A DNA stretch of 64,000 bases, taken from Flavobacteriales bacterium (lineage in GTDB: Bacteria > Bacteroidota > Bacteroidia > Flavobacteriales_D > Sanyastnellaceae). Under the pieces are notes generated by a model. It saw only the letters and a list, made by a program, of their open reading frames with translations. It made no database searches and was not told the DNA's origin. This document shows, piece after piece, positions 13,716 through 19,514 of this stretch (position 1 is the first letter of the stretch; each line of letters starts with the position of its first letter). A program made the translations under genes and the position numbers. The stretch covers positions 22,410-86,409 of the forward strand of contig CANFLZ010000002.1 in assembly GCA_947448135.1 (NCBI GenBank), written 5' to 3'.

Positions 13716-13760
13716 ACCCCAAAAGAACATATACACCGCAATTGAATTTTAAGAAATGCA

Positions 13761-13786
13761 AAAACCCCCAATCTCGGGGGTTTTTT
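13761..13786 (-). terminator. intrinsic terminator (A-run / CCCCC-loop-GGGGG / T-run)
   Basis: The sequence aaaaCCCCCaatctcGGGGGtttttt has a 5-bp G:C stem (13765-13769 paired with 13776-13780), a 6-nt loop and U-tracts on both strands. It lies 54 nt downstream of the FISUMP gene stop. Confidence 0.6.
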
Positions 13787-13839
13787 GTGGTCTGAAATGA
13801 ATCTCGTTATTTCTCGATGAGGAAAGTCAATCAATCCAT

Positions 13840-14532
13840 TCAATTTCGGATACATCTCACCGAGAAGCCTGAATTATTATCGTACAATGCTCTATACAAT
13901 GCATTGTCGTCATATTGAATATATCTCGCATAGGATACACCTTCAAAAAAATCTGAACCTGTCCACCAAAATCCTACAATCCCGTCTAAACCATGCATAC
14001 CCATCATGATATATCCAGCGGGCAAGGCATCAAAGTGACTATCGCGCACAACTTTTTGTGCGTTGTCTTGCCAACTGGTAGATTTTAATTTCCCACCGGT
14101 ATTTCTTCCCGCATTTAACAGATACTCGAGAACATCCCAATCAAAATCAGTAGGTACATGCCAACCAGTTGGACAAATATTTCTGGAGTCATTCACCGCA
14201 TACCAATTGTACAAATATCCATACCCATTATTTTTCTCCACTCGATTGTACAATGCTGTATAAATAGGATCTTTAGAAGAAACCCAATCCATAGAATCAA
14301 CTTCCAGCCTGATTGGATCACCATTTGAATAATGAGTTGACACAAGATTAGAGCGCATCCATTCTTGATGTCCAATTACAACTGTCTTGTAATGATTACC
14401 ATCGAAATCGGTAACTTCCTCACCGGAAATTTGTGATTGAATTAAATTACAACTAAAAGACAAAATGACAAAAAGTAAAAAATCAAATCGTTTCTTCTTT
14501 TTGGCAAAATATTTTTTAATCATGGATGACAT
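13840..14532 (-). CDS. FISUMP-domain lipoprotein
   Basis: I take the start at ATG 14532 (14523 is also possible). The lipoprotein signal is FVILSFSC. The motifs YGYLYNWYAV, CPTGWHVPT, FDALPAGY and GFSVRCI are those of the Fibrobacter succinogenes major paralogous domain. Confidence 0.75.
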   Translation of the reverse strand: MSSMIKKYFAKKKKRFDFLLFVILSFSCNLIQSQISGEEVTDFDGNHYKTVVIGHQEWMRSNLVSTHYSNGDPIRLEVDSMDWVSSKDPIYTALYNRVEKNNGYGYLYNWYAVNDSRNICPTGWHVPTDFDWDVLEYLLNAGRNTGGKLKSTSWQDNAQKVVRDSHFDALPAGYIMMGMHGLDGIVGFWWTGSDFFEGVSYARYIQYDDNALYRALYDNNSGFSVRCIRN

Positions 14533-14660
14533 CGGTTGATTCAATTTATTGGCTCCTCCAAATACTTCTTGGCATGCCAATCAGGCAAATAACCTTCCGC
14601 GAAATATAAGCCTTTGACATTTATTTTTGAGATTGACTTCAGAAGAATGTCGAACTCTTT

Positions 14661-15227
14661 TCATTTGAAAACAATCAAATTGTTGGTATTGTCAATTTCA
14701 ATGTTTCCAAATCTTTCCAAGACTGTTTGTCCAAGAAGCAATGGGGCATTTACATTATTAACGATAGTCGCCTTTACATTCTCCAACTCCAAATTTCCTA
14801 TTTTAACCGATCTTAGATTAATCGTTGTACCCTCAGAAATTCTGCCAGTGGCATCTTGAAAATATTCTACGTCCAAAATATCTTCCTTTCGCAATTTGCC
14901 TTGCCGATACAAGACAGTAGCCTCAGCAGGAGAAATGCAAATATTGCTTGCGCCAGTATCAAAAATAAAACGCAATTTTATGCCATTAATTTCGACCCAA
15001 ACGTAACGCACCCCATCATCAACCTCCATTTCTAATACATTTCCCGTTCGTTCTAAATCGGCTTCTTCTGCATTAGTATTTCCATTACTAAATTTCGAAA
15101 TGTTCACTCCTTCATCGCCTTGATTTCTCTCGTAAACTTTACTCTCTGGATGATCACATCCTAGTATTGCAAGCACACTGATTAATATTAAGATGAAATA
15201 ACGCATTAGCCTATTTATGAGTTCCAT
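14661..15227 (-). CDS. exported retropepsin-like (clan AA) aspartic protease, lipoprotein-type signal
   Basis: 188 aa with a signal peptide and lipobox ILGC. An alternative ATG at 15206 gives MRYFILIL. I translated the catalytic FIFDTGAS motif directly (D-T-G-A-S is nt 14946..14960). Confidence 0.75.
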   Translation of the reverse strand: MELINRLMRYFILILISVLAILGCDHPESKVYERNQGDEGVNISKFSNGNTNAEEADLERTGNVLEMEVDDGVRYVWVEINGIKLRFIFDTGASNICISPAEATVLYRQGKLRKEDILDVEYFQDATGRISEGTTINLRSVKIGNLELENVKATIVNNVNAPLLLGQTVLERFGNIEIDNTNNLIVFK

Positions 15228-16761
15228 CTTTATAAATTGGAATATGTTTTATTCTATCTCTGACAAAATAATAATCTCCGTTAATGCAAAAAAAACAATT
15301 CTTATTCTTTTTATATAACTCACGCTTGTATTCCTCACTTTGATTGCGGTATTTGAGCGCAATGTCCGATCCATGTGATAGGAAAATTAGTTCCACTACA
15401 GAATCTATCTTTGAATCTTGTTTGAATTTTTTTTCAAGTAGTTTTACCTCACTTTCCTTTAATTCAGCATTAGGTTTAGGGTTTAAAGACCTTTCAACTT
15501 CGCGACTTACTTCAGGAGATAATGCTTGTGCTTCCAAACTATTCTCTGTATTATCGTCTTTAATTAATAAATGACCCCCAAAACCTAAAATTGCTCCGAT
15601 AAAAAAAACAAGTGCCAATTTCAAGCGTTTTAATTCCTGTTGATCTTTGGTATTGCTTGAACGTCTTGAATCATTTTTAGATTTTGGATAATCCTCAACA
15701 ATATCAATTTGACTAGAAGTCTTAATTGACGTATTCACCTTTGGCTTTTTGATCCCTTTAACTGGAGAAAATGGACGGATTTGCTCCAAACTTTGAACAA
15801 AGTCCCTTTCATTTTCGTTGTATAAACCTTTTACATACTCGAATTTAGCCCCAGACTCCAATTTTTTTGAGAGTTGTCGGATTTTATCAGCAAATGTGGA
15901 ATAATTTTTCTTTATCAAATCCACATCTCTTTTTGACTCTTCTAGTCGAAGAGCATTTTCCTTGTGATTCTTTTCACTCAATTCGATTTGTGAATTAAAA
16001 TCACTCAAGGCTTTTGATTTATCTTCTTCTAAATTTTTCAGCTTTTTTTCTAACTCATTTAATTTCTGTTCAATTTTCCTTTTTTTCTCATCTTGCACTT
16101 TAATCAATTCTTCCTTAAAGCGATCTGTATCGACCACTTTAAAAATATTCTTTCGTTTTGCAAAGTTTGCAAGTTCTCGGTTATCCGTAAAATAAATAAT
16201 TCTATACACACCCATTAACTTATAGGCATCCTTGAATGTTTTTGTTAAATCACTCTTTTTGGTATGTGATAATACCAATAAAGTTCTACCATTTTCATGT
16301 GAAAAATTCAAATCCTCTAAATCCCGAAAATTAAATTGAGTCGTATTTAATTCTTCAGGGATAGTAAAAACTAGTTCGTCTGAATGATTGACTTTTATTA
16401 CATCATTAAAAACGTTGCTATTGTATACACTTTCATGAAACTTGTTGAGAATATCTATTGTTACCTCTTCATCCGCCAATTTATCCACATACAAAACACT
16501 AGTGCCTATAAATGTCCCGTTCCTTCCAGAATTCCTTTCTTTTGCAAATGAATACTTTGAATAAGCAACTACCTTTTTACCATTAATGACTTCGCCTCTA
16601 ATTGCAAATAAAGAAGAATTAGGAAACAGCATCATCGCGTTTGTATTGATGTCAAAAGTGCTAATTCCACACAGAATATTATTACTTCCCAATACAACGG
16701 ATTGACGGAAACCATGAGGGTTTCCGAAAGTTCCAAAAGCAATTAAATTAATTTCGCTCAT
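15211..16761 (-). CDS. bitopic coiled-coil membrane protein, family unknown
   Basis: 516 aa. It has a mixed beta/alpha N-domain (~1-210) and a K/E-rich heptad region (KEELIKVQDEKKRKIEQKLNELEKKLKNLEEDK...). A single TM helix (LALVFFIGAILGFGGHLLI) is followed by a ~125-aa C-terminal domain. The ATG overlaps the upstream GTPase stop as ATGA (16758..16761). Confidence 0.7.
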   Translation of the reverse strand: MSEINLIAFGTFGNPHGFRQSVVLGSNNILCGISTFDINTNAMMLFPNSSLFAIRGEVINGKKVVAYSKYSFAKERNSGRNGTFIGTSVLYVDKLADEEVTIDILNKFHESVYNSNVFNDVIKVNHSDELVFTIPEELNTTQFNFRDLEDLNFSHENGRTLLVLSHTKKSDLTKTFKDAYKLMGVYRIIYFTDNRELANFAKRKNIFKVVDTDRFKEELIKVQDEKKRKIEQKLNELEKKLKNLEEDKSKALSDFNSQIELSEKNHKENALRLEESKRDVDLIKKNYSTFADKIRQLSKKLESGAKFEYVKGLYNENERDFVQSLEQIRPFSPVKGIKKPKVNTSIKTSSQIDIVEDYPKSKNDSRRSSNTKDQQELKRLKLALVFFIGAILGFGGHLLIKDDNTENSLEAQALSPEVSREVERSLNPKPNAELKESEVKLLEKKFKQDSKIDSVVELIFLSHGSDIALKYRNQSEEYKRELYKKNKNCFFCINGDYYFVRDRIKHIPIYKDGTHK

Positions 16762-17693
16762 GTGCCAAAACTAAATTTGATGCGTTCCCAAAATGTTCCT
16801 TCGTAATCCAAAGGATAATTCGTAATGCTTTTATACAACCATTTTGATAAAATTTCTGCTGTCGATAAATTGAGCATGGTTATTCTTTCATTGCCTTTTG
16901 TTCCCTGTATTGACCCAATTGTATAATAAGTTTTCGCATAACCATATGTATTTAAACGTTGACTCGTTCTGCTTAATCTATCATTTATAAAGCTCTCCAA
17001 TTCTTCTTCATTTGACACAAAAGAATTTCCAGATTTGTCCCATTTCGACACAACTAATATGACATTAACTGATTTAACATTCCTATTCTTCCGAACTAAT
17101 TCATCAAAAAACTCATTTATAATTGTATCCTCTTTATGTGCTGATTCAAAACTCGTCACAATTATAAAAGTCAACGGTATTTCAGCGTTTAAATAAGCAT
17201 CAATACTAGAATGGTAACTCCCTCCTCTTCTTATTTCGTTGTGATTTTCTCCTGACGTTTCTAAAAATGTCAGATTGATCGGCTGCACCTTTTTAGATTT
17301 ATTGTTTGGTTCAAAAACCAAATCCAACCTAGTGACTTGATCTCTAGTTGTTCTATTGGGTAGAATTCCCTGTCTAATATTTTCAAAAAAATCAGATAAT
17401 AAAACCTGGGCTTCCCTTGTGTTCGGGGAATCTAATTTAGGCCGAAGCACACCGGCCCGAGAACTCAGGTAATACAGCATCGAAGATAAAATCACAGATT
17501 TCCCAGATTCTGAAGTTCCGAAGAAGAATACAAAATTGCTGTCTGCATTTTTTATTTTGGAAGAATTTTCCTCTAATGGCACATGGAAATCATCACCATA
17601 ATTTTCTTCATTACCAACATCAGAACCCACAAAATATGTTTCTTTATCGTCTAATGACAGTGGTTTCAATTCATCATCGTCTACCCAACTCAT
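16758..17693 (-). CDS. Ras-like/TRAFAC-type P-loop GTPase-like protein with an acidic N-terminal tail
   Basis: 311 aa. I verified three motifs by hand translation: G1/Walker A GTSESGKS (nt 17496..17519), a G3-like ETSGE (nt 17247..17261) and a G4-like SKWD (nt 17037..17048). The first ~50 residues are D/E-rich. Confidence 0.65.
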   Translation of the reverse strand: MSWVDDDELKPLSLDDKETYFVGSDVGNEENYGDDFHVPLEENSSKIKNADSNFVFFFGTSESGKSVILSSMLYYLSSRAGVLRPKLDSPNTREAQVLLSDFFENIRQGILPNRTTRDQVTRLDLVFEPNNKSKKVQPINLTFLETSGENHNEIRRGGSYHSSIDAYLNAEIPLTFIIVTSFESAHKEDTIINEFFDELVRKNRNVKSVNVILVVSKWDKSGNSFVSNEEELESFINDRLSRTSQRLNTYGYAKTYYTIGSIQGTKGNERITMLNLSTAEILSKWLYKSITNYPLDYEGTFWERIKFSFGT

Positions 17694-17711
17694 TGTATGA
17701 AAATTAAAAAA

Positions 17712-18743
17712 TTAATTTTTAGGGATTAATGTTGCCCCTTTTGTTCTAAAAACATCTCCTCGCCCCCCGTTATTTCCATTTTCTGATGGAACCAATAGTA
17801 TAATTATCATGATACCAAAATCCAACAAAACACAACCCATCAAGACGACAAATTGATACATCCCAAAATGAGAAATAGCATGATTAAAGGCAAATCCAAT
17901 TTTTCCTACCTCTTGTGTATTGGAATGCGCCATATCAAATTTAAATTTCTCTTCTCCTAAAATCGCATGCGCACGATTACCCAATTTATTGTATTCAGAA
18001 ATCGCTTTATCTATTTGCCCTTGCGCCATTTCATCTATTTCCTGGTGAGATTTTAACAGTAAATTCTGAATGTCTTTATTCCACTTTAATGTCGCATTAT
18101 TGATGTCAGACATCAAGTTTTTCTCCTCCGGAGTTAAATTGTAGACCATCTGAACGATTTGCTCTTCCATTCTATCCGCTAAATCAGCATAACCCGAAGG
18201 TGTTTCATCAATAGGTGTTAGAGGAGTTATTTTTTTTCCTATTAACTTCTCAATTCTACCTATTATTTGTTTGGCCTCAGGACCGATACCTCTGTTCCTA
18301 GGATCCATTATTTGAATCTTGAGAAGGTTTAACTCACTTCTAATAGCTTGCCTTGTTTGTGCATCAGCAACCGAATAATTCAATTTAGATTCAACGTTGG
18401 TTTCTAAATCACTGAATTTATCATTCAACTCTCTCAATTCTGTTGTGAAAATATCAGTCCTCATAAATCGAGTGTATAACGCATTAAAGTTGGCGATGAA
18501 ACAAAAGGATGCTATGAAAAAATAAATTAATACCAAACCGCGAGTTTCCAATCCCGACATTTTTGATTTTCGCAATTGCCATAACAGAAATAATAACAAT
18601 AAGGACAGTACTAAAGAGATTACAAAAGAACTGGTTCCAAATATTTGTTGCAATCCCAACCAAGTCTGGTAGAAACTAACACTTATTAGCATTAACGTTA
18701 GCACAGCCAAAAACAAATCTGTTGGGGTAATTTTATTTTTCAT
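17712..18743 (-). CDS. polytopic membrane protein with long helical soluble domain, family unknown (possibly DUF4407-like)
   Basis: 343 aa. There are three N-terminal TM helices (LFLAVLTLMLISVSF, FVISLVLSLLLLFLLW, LVLIYFFIASFCFIANF). A ~200-aa helical region follows, then one C-terminal TM helix (FVVLMGCVLLDFGIMIIILLV). It is the first gene of the cassette. Confidence 0.7.
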   Translation of the reverse strand: MKNKITPTDLFLAVLTLMLISVSFYQTWLGLQQIFGTSSFVISLVLSLLLLFLLWQLRKSKMSGLETRGLVLIYFFIASFCFIANFNALYTRFMRTDIFTTELRELNDKFSDLETNVESKLNYSVADAQTRQAIRSELNLLKIQIMDPRNRGIGPEAKQIIGRIEKLIGKKITPLTPIDETPSGYADLADRMEEQIVQMVYNLTPEEKNLMSDINNATLKWNKDIQNLLLKSHQEIDEMAQGQIDKAISEYNKLGNRAHAILGEEKFKFDMAHSNTQEVGKIGFAFNHAISHFGMYQFVVLMGCVLLDFGIMIIILLVPSENGNNGGRGDVFRTKGATLIPKN

Positions 18744-19032
18744 TTCTTTTTCTATTTAAATCTATTTCACAGTATTCATTAAACTTTCAGTCATAAATCG
18801 GTAAGAGATTGATAGGTGCTAATTCATATAAGTCCTATTTCAACCATGACAATTTTCTCTTCTGAAGCCCAATCTAAACTGAGATTCAAAAAACAAAAGT
18901 CTATTTCAAATCCCACAATTCAAACCGCCATTAGTTTTTTAATACAACCTGTAGATGTTACTTTTATTATAATTGAATTGCTTAATAGGATTGAAATAAT
19001 AACATTCTTATTTACTATAAAAAAGACTATTG

Positions 19033-19046
19033 GGAACTTAAGTTCC
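19033..19046. promoter_or_regulatory. perfect 14-bp palindrome GGAACTTAAGTTCC, candidate XRE operator (or small hairpin)
   Basis: Read directly from the sequence. The palindrome ends 59 nt upstream of the XRE ATG (19106). It is followed by GTTTTTATT, and an A-run lies a few bases upstream. Confidence 0.4.
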
Positions 19047-19105
19047 GTTTTTATTGTCTCTCACACTGCATTTCATTATCTTCGGGCAAGAAAATTTCCA
19101 AGATT

Positions 19106-19465
19106 ATGCTTACTGAAAAAGTCGGAGAGTCTCTTAAGAATTACAGAGAACTGAAAAAAATTACCAGAGAAGATATGGCCGATCGCCTGGGTATGACTGT
19201 CAGTGGTTATGGCAAAATAGAAAGAGGAGAAACGGATGTGCCGCTTACACGATTGGAACAAATCTCAAAAGTCCTAGGAGTTTCAGTGTCTCAGATTCTA
19301 CAGTTTGATGCGCAACAAATCTTCAATATCTCCAATAACAATCTTGTTCAAGGGCCAGGAAACAAAGCCGATGAAATCCATTATCATCCCGATACTTACA
19401 AAGACAAGTATATTCAAGTGCTCGAAAGAGAAAACGAACGTCTCCGAAAATTATTAGGAGAATAA
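19106..19465 (+). CDS. XRE-family (Cro/C1-type HTH) transcriptional regulator
   Basis: 119 aa with the HTH ITREDMADRLGMTVSGYGKIERGETDVPLTRLEQISKVLGVSVSQIL. A short C-terminal heptad helix (YIQVLERENERLRKLL) follows. Confidence 0.85.
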   Translation: MLTEKVGESLKNYRELKKITREDMADRLGMTVSGYGKIERGETDVPLTRLEQISKVLGVSVSQILQFDAQQIFNISNNNLVQGPGNKADEIHYHPDTYKDKYIQVLERENERLRKLLGE

Positions 19466-19497
19466 AAAAAACCCCCGCAAGTTGCGAGGGTTTTTTT
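19465..19497. terminator. bidirectional intrinsic terminator
   Basis: The sequence aaaaaaaaCCCCCGCaagttGCGaGGGttttttt has a GC-rich stem with one bulge, flanked by an A-run and a T-run. It lies between the convergent XRE gene and the M14 peptidase gene. Confidence 0.6.
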
Positions 19498-19514
19498 GAT
19501 ATTTCAAAGTTCTA

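Follow-up and report, generated by a model that had tools for sequence, protein, structure and literature searches.

The DO-GTPases (Pfam PF19975 and PF19993) are TRAFAC GTPases whose Walker B motif has a conserved glutamate. Computational work has predicted that they act as the switch in conflict systems located near the membrane (Kaur, Burroughs, Iyer & Aravind 2020, PMC7159879). In the published systems the GTPase is accompanied by GAP1, which is encoded downstream and built from an N1 or N2 domain together with M and C domains, by either a GASH (N1 type) or an FNIII protein (N2 type), and by variable effectors (PMC7159879). N-terminal zinc ribbons are found in 60% of the family members and a paralogous GTPase pair in 38% of the systems, neither feature being obligatory; transmembrane (TM) components occur in 67% of the systems, and GAP1 itself may bear C-terminal TM segments (PMC7159879). 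In Bacteroidetes, the GAP1-N1 systems have two GTPases and nucleotide-related effectors (PMC7159879). DO-GTPase systems make up a large predicted class of nucleoside triphosphate (NTP)-regulated conflict systems whose function is so far predicted only; in the searchable literature they are described only in the 2020 paper, the supplementary table of which does not list the carrier genera. Here we report on a cassette of four minus-strand genes, termed A, B, C and D, in a 64,000-nt stretch of DNA from a Flavobacteriales bacterium (GCA_947448135.1, contig CANFLZ010000002.1, positions 22,410-86,409, forward strand; hereafter the window, to which all coordinates given without a locus number refer). 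The cassette is a genuine operon, so far without a name, that is widespread and conserved across Bacteroidota, and we treat it as a putative new variant built around a DO-GTPase-type switch, a class of GTPase that had already been predicted; the triad A-B-C is named nowhere in the searchable literature.

A conserved triad around a DO-GTPase-like protein

The four open reading frames (ORFs) lie on the minus strand and follow one another closely, as a first-pass annotation made from the sequence alone had claimed. A (17712-18743) encodes a polytopic inner-membrane protein of 343 aa, B (16758-17693) a soluble DO-GTPase1-like TRAFAC GTPase of 311 aa, and C (15211-16761) a bitopic protein of 516 aa; these three are the core components. 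D (14661-15227), an accessory component, encodes a lipoprotein with the features of a retropepsin-like (clan AA) aspartic protease, of 188 aa. Direct reading of the sequence gives a gap of 18 nt between A and B and a stop/start overlap (ATGA) between B and C. At the C/D junction, the first ATG of D would produce a 17-nt overlap and the second a 4-nt gap (TAG-GCTA-ATG). The second is most likely the true start (14661-15206, 181 aa), since gene callers choose it and the resulting 17-aa signal peptide matches the lengths of the homologues. Because hundreds of homologues exist at 30-80% identity, A to D are real genes and not chance ORFs, and their organization as a translationally coupled operon is supported.

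To survey the distribution of the cassette, we scanned 185,579 species, each represented by a single genome, in a pattern-limited search; it yielded 121 B relatives as tblastn-confirmed stretches, of which 80 loci were examined (here and below, loci are cited by L-numbers where needed). C lies directly after B in 80/80 loci and A before B in 79/80, the exception being a contig end. The A-B gaps range from -1 to 16 nt, other than in L022 (an ORF-calling artefact) and L043 (950 nt); B and C overlap by 1-4 nt or are separated by at most 24 nt. D is found directly 3' of C, on the same strand, in only 14 of the 80 loci, and exclusively with a long form of C. Among the 78 loci with a full-length C, 48 have this long form, with an external tail, and 30 have a short form that ends just past the TM helix. 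The conserved unit is the triad A-B-C, not the tetrad. The co-occurrence of all four genes across Bacteroidota that the first-pass annotation had proposed to look for is thus seen for A, B and C, which are adjacent and in the same order wherever the contig allows, and is lacking for D. Its view of a GTPase switch coupled to proteolysis cannot describe the core function, since the protease is present in 14/80 loci and the tail of C in 48/78. In the metagenome-assembled genome of L043 (1768-4709), the ~950 nt between A and B may reflect an inserted segment or hold an additional small gene.

The same architecture was seen further afield. Scanning metagenomes for B relatives of ~25% identity, with a 7-sequence alignment as the query, gave 29 loci. 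Where the contig allows, the upstream gene has N-terminal TM helices plus one at the C-terminus and matches the hidden Markov model (HMM) of A at 1e-13 to 1e-48, and the downstream gene usually encodes a protein with one TM helix, at about residue 300-350, whose match to the C HMM is mostly in the range 1e-7 to 1e-13. The metagenomic contigs bearing the triad have guanine-cytosine (GC) contents of 37-53%.

Beyond an acidic and variable N-terminal stretch of ~50 aa, B contains the G1 motif GTSESGKS with the Walker A lysine K65, the G3 motif ETSGE at position 145 (E145/E149) and the G4 motif SKWD (216-219). It matches Pfam DO-GTPase1 at E=7.6e-5 (22.5 bits, below the cut-off of 27), with a weaker match to DO-GTPase2. 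For 49/49 members of the B family, Pfam ranks DO-GTPase1 first (best 1e-6), and a profile of the family, run against 1.84 billion cluster representatives, retrieved 336 clusters at E<=1e-3. When distant relatives recovered with the B profile were compared with Pfam (n=118), 70 matched DO-GTPase1 (best 1.2e-15) and 16 matched DO-GTPase2; one of the distant relatives, P0309, scored 33.4 bits against DO-GTPase1, above the cut-off. In the glutamate-type Walker B of B, FLETSGE, residues E145, G148 and E149 are invariant or nearly so across the family. The distant relatives read EMSGE or EMAGE at this site. G1 has the pattern GxxxxGK[ST] and G4 is SKWD, and both the Walker B glutamate motif and SKWD persist in relatives of ~25% identity. 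Because DO-GTPase1 is the top family in every member, most distant relatives match it, and the Walker B glutamate is kept, we provisionally assign B by sequence to the DO-GTPase superfamily. The Ras-like label given to it previously does not hold: no Ras, Arf, Roc or MglA-type Pfam match was obtained for B, the one such hit being TIGR00231 at E 0.018 over 30 residues at the G4 region. A profile search of PDB with B returned no sequence relative of known structure beyond P-loop noise. In a few of the distant relatives the GTPase is joined to a TIR_2, EAD11, caspase, kinase or Roc-COR domain.

We then compared the cassette with the published DO-GTPase systems. It resembles them in the GTPase superfamily, in having a partner gene immediately 3' of the GTPase gene and membrane-proximal TM components, in the variable peptidase- or nuclease-type accessory genes, and in its mobile, sporadic distribution. 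The GAP1-N1, N2, M and C domains were unmatched at E<=1 in the C of the window, in the 25 most frequent families of 52 C homologues and in six distant C-like proteins. GASH and fn3 were likewise unmatched in 44 A homologues (the A of the window in full, the others through their 25 most frequent families), in 10 further A-like proteins, in the cassette proteins and in the 10 most recurrent flank clusters. No CxxC pairs that could form a zinc ribbon were present in B or in 59 of 60 long relatives checked, the remaining one having a single CxxC, and each cassette has one GTPase gene with no paralogous pair. Since GAP1, GASH/FNIII and the zinc ribbon were not found and the GTPase is single, we do not file the cassette under the GAP1-N1 or GAP1-N2 systems. 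The accessory enzymes differ as well, being extracytoplasmic lipoproteins in the cassette and cytoplasmic nucleotide-related effectors in DO-GTPase systems. Common to both, on the other hand, is a shared adaptor element that would tie the effectors to the core: EAD/GAAD domains in DO-GTPase systems and a short lipoprotein N-terminal motif in the cassette. Tandem GTPase genes in L103 (3147-5467) were rejected as a 'double GTPase', the copies being 94% identical, which indicates a recent duplication or an assembly artefact.

The claim that the cassette has no named counterpart stands in part. No named defence system was matched other than weakly or partially, and A and C matched none; the family of B does have a name, DO-GTPase (PMC7159879). 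Among the PADLOC-DB v2 matches, which we rejected as evidence of membership, mad8 (5.3e-5) covers only the P-loop region (profile positions 25-95 of 314), ZorA1 (6.9e-4), LeoBC (8.7e-3) and LmuB (0.013) fall on coiled-coil stretches, BnzB is weak, and D has no match. Matches to PHROGs were rejected as well, as tape-measure-type coiled-coil noise only.

Membrane partners and exported enzymes

The TM pattern of A, the domain architecture of C, the Walker A lysine of B and the lipobox and DTGAS motif of D were all found as first described, by sequence reading and in AlphaFold (AF2) models. The predicted topology, with the GTPase and the N-terminal part of C in the cytoplasm and the tail of C and the protease outside it, also holds as a prediction.

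A has hydrophobic helices at approximately residues 10-31, 40-57, 70-90 and 295-317, and an all-helical region of ~200 aa (95-291) between the third and the fourth (AF2; predicted local distance difference test score, pLDDT, 71). Applying the positive-inside rule to 44 A homologues gave a net charge of +2.9 for loop 2 and +3.1 for the C-terminal tail; this positive charge places both in the cytoplasm and the ~200-aa helical domain, by prediction, in the periplasm. The family is large (469 homologues at 55-96% identity), and it had no match in Pfam, in the PDB profile search or in PADLOC beyond coiled-coil noise. A Foldseek search of PDB with the model of A gave no match at E<=1e-3, and the best non-significant neighbours were periplasmic sensor bundles such as TorS. 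Residues T27 and G30 in TM1, Y74, N85 and N87 in TM3 ('GNFN'; 18483-18491) and an acidic residue, Asp or Glu, at mid-TM4 position 308 (D308 in the window; 17820-17822) are conserved in 12/12 intermediate-distance homologues. The intramembrane conservation of N-x-N and Asp/Glu extends to homologues in the contigs of 37-53% GC. The conservation pattern suggests that the buried acid beside the asparagine pair is an ion-binding or ion-conducting site, or else a polar lock with the TM helix of C. A buried polar site of this type resembles those found in ion-translocating membrane proteins.

Two A homologues (P0177 and P0250) carry the UniRef label DUF4407 (PF14362). We rejected this label, as neither matches the family at E<=1; the best DUF4407 match was E 0.78 for one distant A-like protein, and the family is not among the 25 most frequent over the 44 A homologues. 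Two papers that mention DUF4407 genes could not be tied to the A family. The same label is borne by a 'DUF4407 domain-containing protein' (KYF39_06925) in the PhoP regulon list of Riemerella anatipestifer (PMC9603813).

The AF2 model of C is confident (pLDDT 85). Its cytoplasmic N-module consists of a beta-beta-alpha-beta-beta-beta-alpha domain (1-116) and a small alpha/beta domain (120-211). Next comes a coiled coil of ~115 residues (212-326), made up of a long helix and another one. A disordered linker leads to the TM helix (372-400), beyond which the protein has a folded tail (430-516) on the extracytoplasmic side. We detected 52 homologues at 31-41% identity, none of which has a Pfam domain beyond coiled-coil noise, and C was also unmatched in the PADLOC and PDB profile searches beyond such noise. 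The strand order of residues 1-116 is longin-like in the model, and a GxPxG loop, E75 and R80-x-G-x-F are conserved in the N-module over intermediate-distance homologues. No Foldseek match to the model was obtained in PDB or BFVD at E<=1e-3. The two chains of highest probability, both non-significant, were 6ulg_N (0.51) and 9h4q_T (0.44), each from a Rag-GTPase regulator complex; the query was the whole 516-aa model, with low TM-scores as a result and E values of 0.03-0.06. C thus resembles the longin/roadblock regulators of GTPases (FLCN-FNIP, GATOR/SEAC, MglB) in the strand order of its first domain, in the small alpha/beta domain next to it, in R80 and in the adjacent GTPase gene. It differs from them in having no sequence similarity, in the non-significance of its matches and in the fusion of the N-domain to a coiled coil and TM anchor. 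We take the longin-like identity suggested by the model as a lead. A conserved arginine in a longin-like domain adjoining a GTPase is what we would expect of a GTPase-activating protein (GAP).

D is, by its domain matches, unambiguously a clan AA retropepsin-like protease (gag-asp_proteas 3.7e-16, Asp_protease_2 2.8e-12, TIGR02281 1.1e-11). It exceeds the cut-offs of PF13975 (59.9 bits against 28.2) and PF13650 (47.6 bits against 24.3) and falls below that of TIGR02281 (45 against 57.95 bits). In common with the bacterial members of this clan (PF13975/PF13650; TIGR02281 clan_AA_DTGA), D has the single-lobe fold signature and the invariant DTGAS, located at residue 90 of the 188-aa form and present in 14/14 homologues. 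It differs from the other members in being a lipoprotein with a private C-x-HPE...YER N-terminus that is coupled to a membrane GTPase cassette. The lipobox is ILGC, with Cys24 in the 188-aa form, and the mature chain after the cysteine reads DHPESKVYERNQ.

The same motif is found in a second, unrelated enzyme. The next gene, overlapping D by 4 nt, encodes a staphylococcal-nuclease-family (SNase) lipoprotein in seven of the D-bearing loci and a 133-aa secreted protein in three. In L012 the nuclease gene lies directly after C. C-x-HP[ED] opens the mature chain after the lipobox cysteine in the D of the window, in all 14 D homologues and, among the deeper-branching loci, in the seven coupled nucleases. 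Y/F-[ED]-R usually comes after it (C-x-HPE-x-x-x-Y-E-R), with a degenerate tail in L076 and L084; the N-terminal motif peptide of D and the SNases is CDHPESKVYERNQ. A search of ~1.6 Mb in six-frame translation for strict C-x-HPE-x-x-x-Y-E-R gave nine occurrences, in D and SNase proteins only. The motif lies at 15136-15170 in the window (D residues 20-30 of the 188-aa form) and is shared by D and SNase genes of L008-L084, for example those in L014 (12469-13613), L067 (12514-13604) and L012 (12430-12975). The SNase genes of one Chryseobacterium lineage, most of them only loosely linked, encode an ordinary signal peptide in place of the motif. The lipoprotein export signal of Bacteroidota is K-(D/E)2 or Q-A-(D/E)2 (PMC5080379), from which the C-x-HPE motif differs. 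C-x-HPE...YER could be a docking peptide or a processing site.

The gene 3' of C varies between a retropepsin-like protease (14 loci), an SNase lipoprotein, a 133-aa secreted protein, an FRG protein, a FISUMP protein and nothing at all. The hydrolases and the tail of C are features of one sub-lineage that includes the copy in the window. The closest relatives of the window, L117-L119 (A 96% identical), keep XRE-A-B-C-D, and their gene after D encodes an unrelated 279-aa membrane protein; the B of the FRG-bearing cassettes is 76-77% identical to that of the window. The slot after D is swapped among such close relatives, being occupied by FISUMP in the window (13840-14580), by the 279-aa membrane-anchored protein in L117 (9300-10139) and by an FRG-domain protein in L120 (11172-11891). 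In L072, an unrelated membrane protein of 135 aa follows D after a 22-nt gap. Directly 3' of the cassette in L009 (13137-13382) and L066 (12250-12504), from unrelated hosts, we observed genes for small (81-84 aa) cysteine-rich lipoproteins with the pattern Y-H-x-x-S-x-C-x-G-L-x-x-C.

Mobility and candidate function

The cassette is horizontally mobile. In a neighbour-joining tree of A+B, single clades bring together Chitinophagales, Flavobacteriales, Cytophagales and Sphingobacteriales, and the Chryseobacterium cassettes fall in three separate lineages. The flanks are variable: their 430 proteins fall into 247 clusters, of which 189 are singletons. Some neighbours are of the defence or mobile type: McrBC adjoins the cassette in C. 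kwangjuense, and in L120-L122 genes for an FRG protein, DUF4248 and a tyrosine integrase follow A-B-C-D in that order, with type I restriction-modification (R-M) genes next in L121 and L122. The setting of L120-L122 is probably an integrative element or a defence island. The conflict between tree and host taxonomy, together with these neighbours, makes a conflict-type context plausible.

The low GC content that had also been read as a sign of a defence context is real in the window, where the cassette genes have values of 0.32-0.37 (D, C, B and A) and the flanking genes 0.42-0.43, and so is the divergent XRE gene. Neither is general: averaged over 68 loci, the cassette has a GC content of 0.353 and its flanks 0.360, and XRE-like genes lie near the cassette in 5/80 loci, at 28-34% identity. 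As the cassette has a GC content of ~0.353 whatever the host, the AT-rich island reflects import into the higher-GC genome of the window.

We consider it most likely, at a probability of about one half, that the locus is a horizontally mobile inner-membrane GTPase-switch module of the DO-GTPase type that acts as a conflict system, against phages or mobile elements; a defence role is plausible and unproven. In the mechanism that we propose, B would cycle between GTP and GDP states under the control of the N-module of C, whose longin-like strand order and E75/R80 would make it a possible GAP-like or guanine nucleotide exchange factor (GEF)-like regulator of B. The state of B would be relayed via the membrane helices of A and C, and the predicted periplasmic helical domain of A would be the sensor. 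The output of the minimal triad may be ion leakage or membrane perturbation through A, to which the extended version would add the docking, release or activation of a tethered periplasmic protease and nuclease via the tail of C. A fuller version of the conflict-system reading would make the cassette an envelope-level immunity device of a hitherto undescribed kind, in which the GTPase switches via two inner-membrane partners that share the N-x-N/Asp ion site and controls a protease and an SNase docked by C-x-HPE...YER on the tail of C; incoming DNA and proteins of phages or conjugative elements would then come under attack in the periplasm, ahead of their entry into the cytoplasm, with the minimal triad acting via controlled ion leakage. 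We regard this version as quite unlikely.

Several observations weigh against a conflict system of the DO-GTPase type. The B of the window scores below the gathering threshold of Pfam DO-GTPase1 (22.5 against 27 bits), and the cassette departs from DO-GTPase systems in having neither GAP1, GASH/FNIII nor a zinc ribbon, in its one GTPase and in the unannotated families of A and C. DO-GTPase systems are themselves computational predictions, as is the defence role of the cassette. The topology of A is a rule-of-thumb prediction, and the longin-like reading of C leans on non-significant Foldseek matches (E 0.03). No effector domain can be recognised in the minimal triad. The identity of A and of B across orders, at 55-80%, is unusually high for defence genes; the flanking genes are mostly ordinary metabolic or envelope genes (recurrently an acyltransferase, methyltransferases, an asparaginase and type IX secretion system (T9SS) cargo, with efflux components also among the neighbours), with PADLOC models matching a minority of 148 representative flank proteins at E<=1e-8; and searches for B in plasmid, phage and IMG/VR collections gave no matches.

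The last three of these points also speak for a non-defensive envelope module, the main rival to the conflict-system reading, which we hold fairly unlikely. Such a module would serve envelope-stress signalling, lipoprotein processing or sorting, or vesicle or surface maintenance, with cytoplasmic hydrolysis driving a periplasmic domain over hydrolases. The model for it is FtsEX-EnvC, which controls amidases; in systems of the FtsEX-EnvC/MacB type, a cytoplasmic NTPase and a 4-TM protein with a periplasmic domain act with a coiled-coil partner in the control of periplasmic hydrolases. The cassette, with its cytoplasmic NTPase, 4-TM partner, coiled-coil protein and periplasmic hydrolases, resembles this mechanotransmission as a functional analogy only: its NTPase is a TRAFAC GTPase and not an ABC ATPase, C has its coiled coil in the cytoplasm, the hydrolases are an optional addition, and there is no sequence or structural similarity. 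The accessory proteins are all exported lipoproteins, and the predicted periplasmic location of the helical domain of A and its best, if non-significant, structural neighbours (TorS among the periplasmic sensor bundles) fit an envelope module as well. Such a module is harder to reconcile with the patchy distribution (121 stretches from the pattern-limited scan of 185,579 species genomes), with the conflict between the cassette tree and taxonomy, including several lineages in one genus, with the highly variable flanks, with the integrase, R-M and McrBC genes that adjoin some loci, and with the fusion of B-family relatives to TIR, caspase and EAD domains. A further candidate is a function in entry exclusion or maintenance carried by integrative mobile elements, in which the triad and the periplasmic nuclease and protease would block uptake of competing DNA or elements to the benefit of the element and not of the host. 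The cassettes of L120-L122 adjoin 11 small unannotated genes in a block as well as a tyrosine integrase gene, transfer has occurred across orders, and some versions have a periplasmic lipoprotein nuclease. We regard this function as quite unlikely, given that most loci are free of integrase or conjugation genes within 10 kb, that the nuclease occurs in a minority of loci, and that no such genes and no convincing flanking direct repeats were found near the cassette in the window, which has no tRNA.

A divergent DO-GTPase/GAP1 system, in which C is a GAP1 and A a GASH-type partner that have diverged beyond recognition, would account for the gene order, GAP1 being 'typically encoded downstream of a DO-GTPase gene' (PMC7159879), and for the membrane segments, in view of the C-terminal TM segments of GAP1 and the TM components of 67% of systems (PMC7159879). 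C moreover has several globular domains, and A is all-helical, like GASH. The domain searches described above, which found no GAP1 domain in C, its 52 homologues (25 most frequent families) or six distant C-like proteins and no GASH in the 44 A homologues or the 10 further A-like proteins, argue against such a system, as do the single GTPase without a zinc ribbon and the two GTPases and nucleotide-related effectors of the GAP1-N1 systems in Bacteroidetes; we judge it very unlikely. An MglA/MglB-like polarity module or a contact-dependent competition system, the alternatives raised by the first-pass annotation, found no support and are highly improbable. The longin/roadblock-like strand order of the N-domain of C and its best, non-significant Foldseek matches, from Rag-GTPase regulator complexes, are in line with the former, and exported hydrolases could in principle be toxins. 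B, however, has no Ras, Arf or MglA-type Pfam match (TIGR00231, E 0.018, touches the G4 region only), Robl_LC7 was not found in C, and the cassette occurs in non-gliding and gliding lineages alike. As to competition, the cassette has no toxin/immunity pair and no Rhs, contact-dependent inhibition (CDI) or type VI secretion system (T6SS) gene, and D and the SNase are lipid-anchored, not secreted.

The triad is compact (three genes, ~3.6 kb), strongly conserved and present in culturable hosts with known phages, namely Flavobacterium psychrophilum, Chryseobacterium and Capnocytophaga, and therefore offers a practical entry point for studying DO-GTPases. The intramembrane N-x-N and Asp/Glu site of A and the motif common to two unrelated exported enzymes provide handles for mutagenesis. 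Control of periplasmic hydrolases by the extended version, if real, would make it a rare example of immunity or signalling beyond the cytoplasm; should the cassette instead have a housekeeping role, it would define a new GTPase-driven envelope machine in Bacteroidota.

Edges of the locus and neighbouring genes

A and the divergent gene for an XRE-family helix-turn-helix (HTH) regulator of 119 aa (19106-19465, plus strand; Pfam HTH_3 4.8e-15) are separated by an intergenic region of 362 nt with a GC content of 0.285 (18744-19105), the presumed promoter and operator region. The XRE gene is a lineage-specific companion of the cassette; in L117-L119 its product is identical to that of the window bar one extra C-terminal residue. 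A sigma-70 promoter scan was uninformative (19 sites against 23.8 expected from shuffles), and Bacteroidota use other promoters.

On the other side, a gene for a FISUMP-domain lipoprotein (13840-14580, minus strand; Pfam Fib_succ_major 1.4e-36; GC 0.371) begins 80 nt 3' of D; it was found in 0/80 of the other cassette loci. On the minus strand, our scan detected nothing terminator-like from A to D; the first clear site of this kind (13785-13760) lies past the FISUMP gene, so the transcript may include a fifth gene, and FISUMP is possibly co-transcribed with the cassette. This site is a GC-rich hairpin with an 11-bp stem and a T-run (13760-13793, minus strand), at one edge of the low-GC block. 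A GC-rich palindromic hairpin (19462-19500; arms of 19 nt, 89% complementary) between the convergent XRE and carboxypeptidase genes marks the other edge, where a hairpin at 19459-19477 is an inverted copy of that at 13760-13793. The hairpins at 13760-13793 and 19462-19500 are alike (AAAAACCCCCG...GGGGGTTTTT-type), stand in inverted orientation and bracket the low-GC block FISUMP-D-C-B-A-XRE; both resemble terminators, and each falls at an edge of the imported segment.

Further genes were observed around some of the other cassettes. L117 (2890-4434), as well as L118 and L119, has an extra gene for a trypsin-family protease of 514 aa between the T9SS carboxypeptidase and XRE genes, which the window does not have. 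In the metagenomic contigs L120 (1-6700) and L121 (1-6720), 11 co-oriented small genes without a Pfam match lie on the side of the cassette away from the integrase. On the other side in L121 (12171-16936), and also in L122, the type I R-M genes for HsdR and HsdM lie past the integrase.

The most distant B relatives, in L111 (4510-10339), L112, L115 (791-7434) and L116 (1039-11290), are encoded within larger operons. Homology of their A-like and C-like neighbours to A and C was rejected for L111-L116, hhalign giving probabilities of 18% and 3%, and the architecture alone is shared. In L111 and L116, a gene for a membrane-anchored subtilase (Peptidase_S8, 2.5e-45) lies ahead of the GTPase gene and its two neighbours, which encode an A-like protein with 4 TM helices and a C-like one with a single TM helix; in L116, a Virul_Fac/PF10139 protein (2.7e-115) is also encoded ahead of these three. 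Since hhalign does not support homology, the association with the subtilase and Virul_Fac is not transferable to the cassette of the window, and the operons of L111-L116 may, by analogy, represent a parallel architecture with a different protease.

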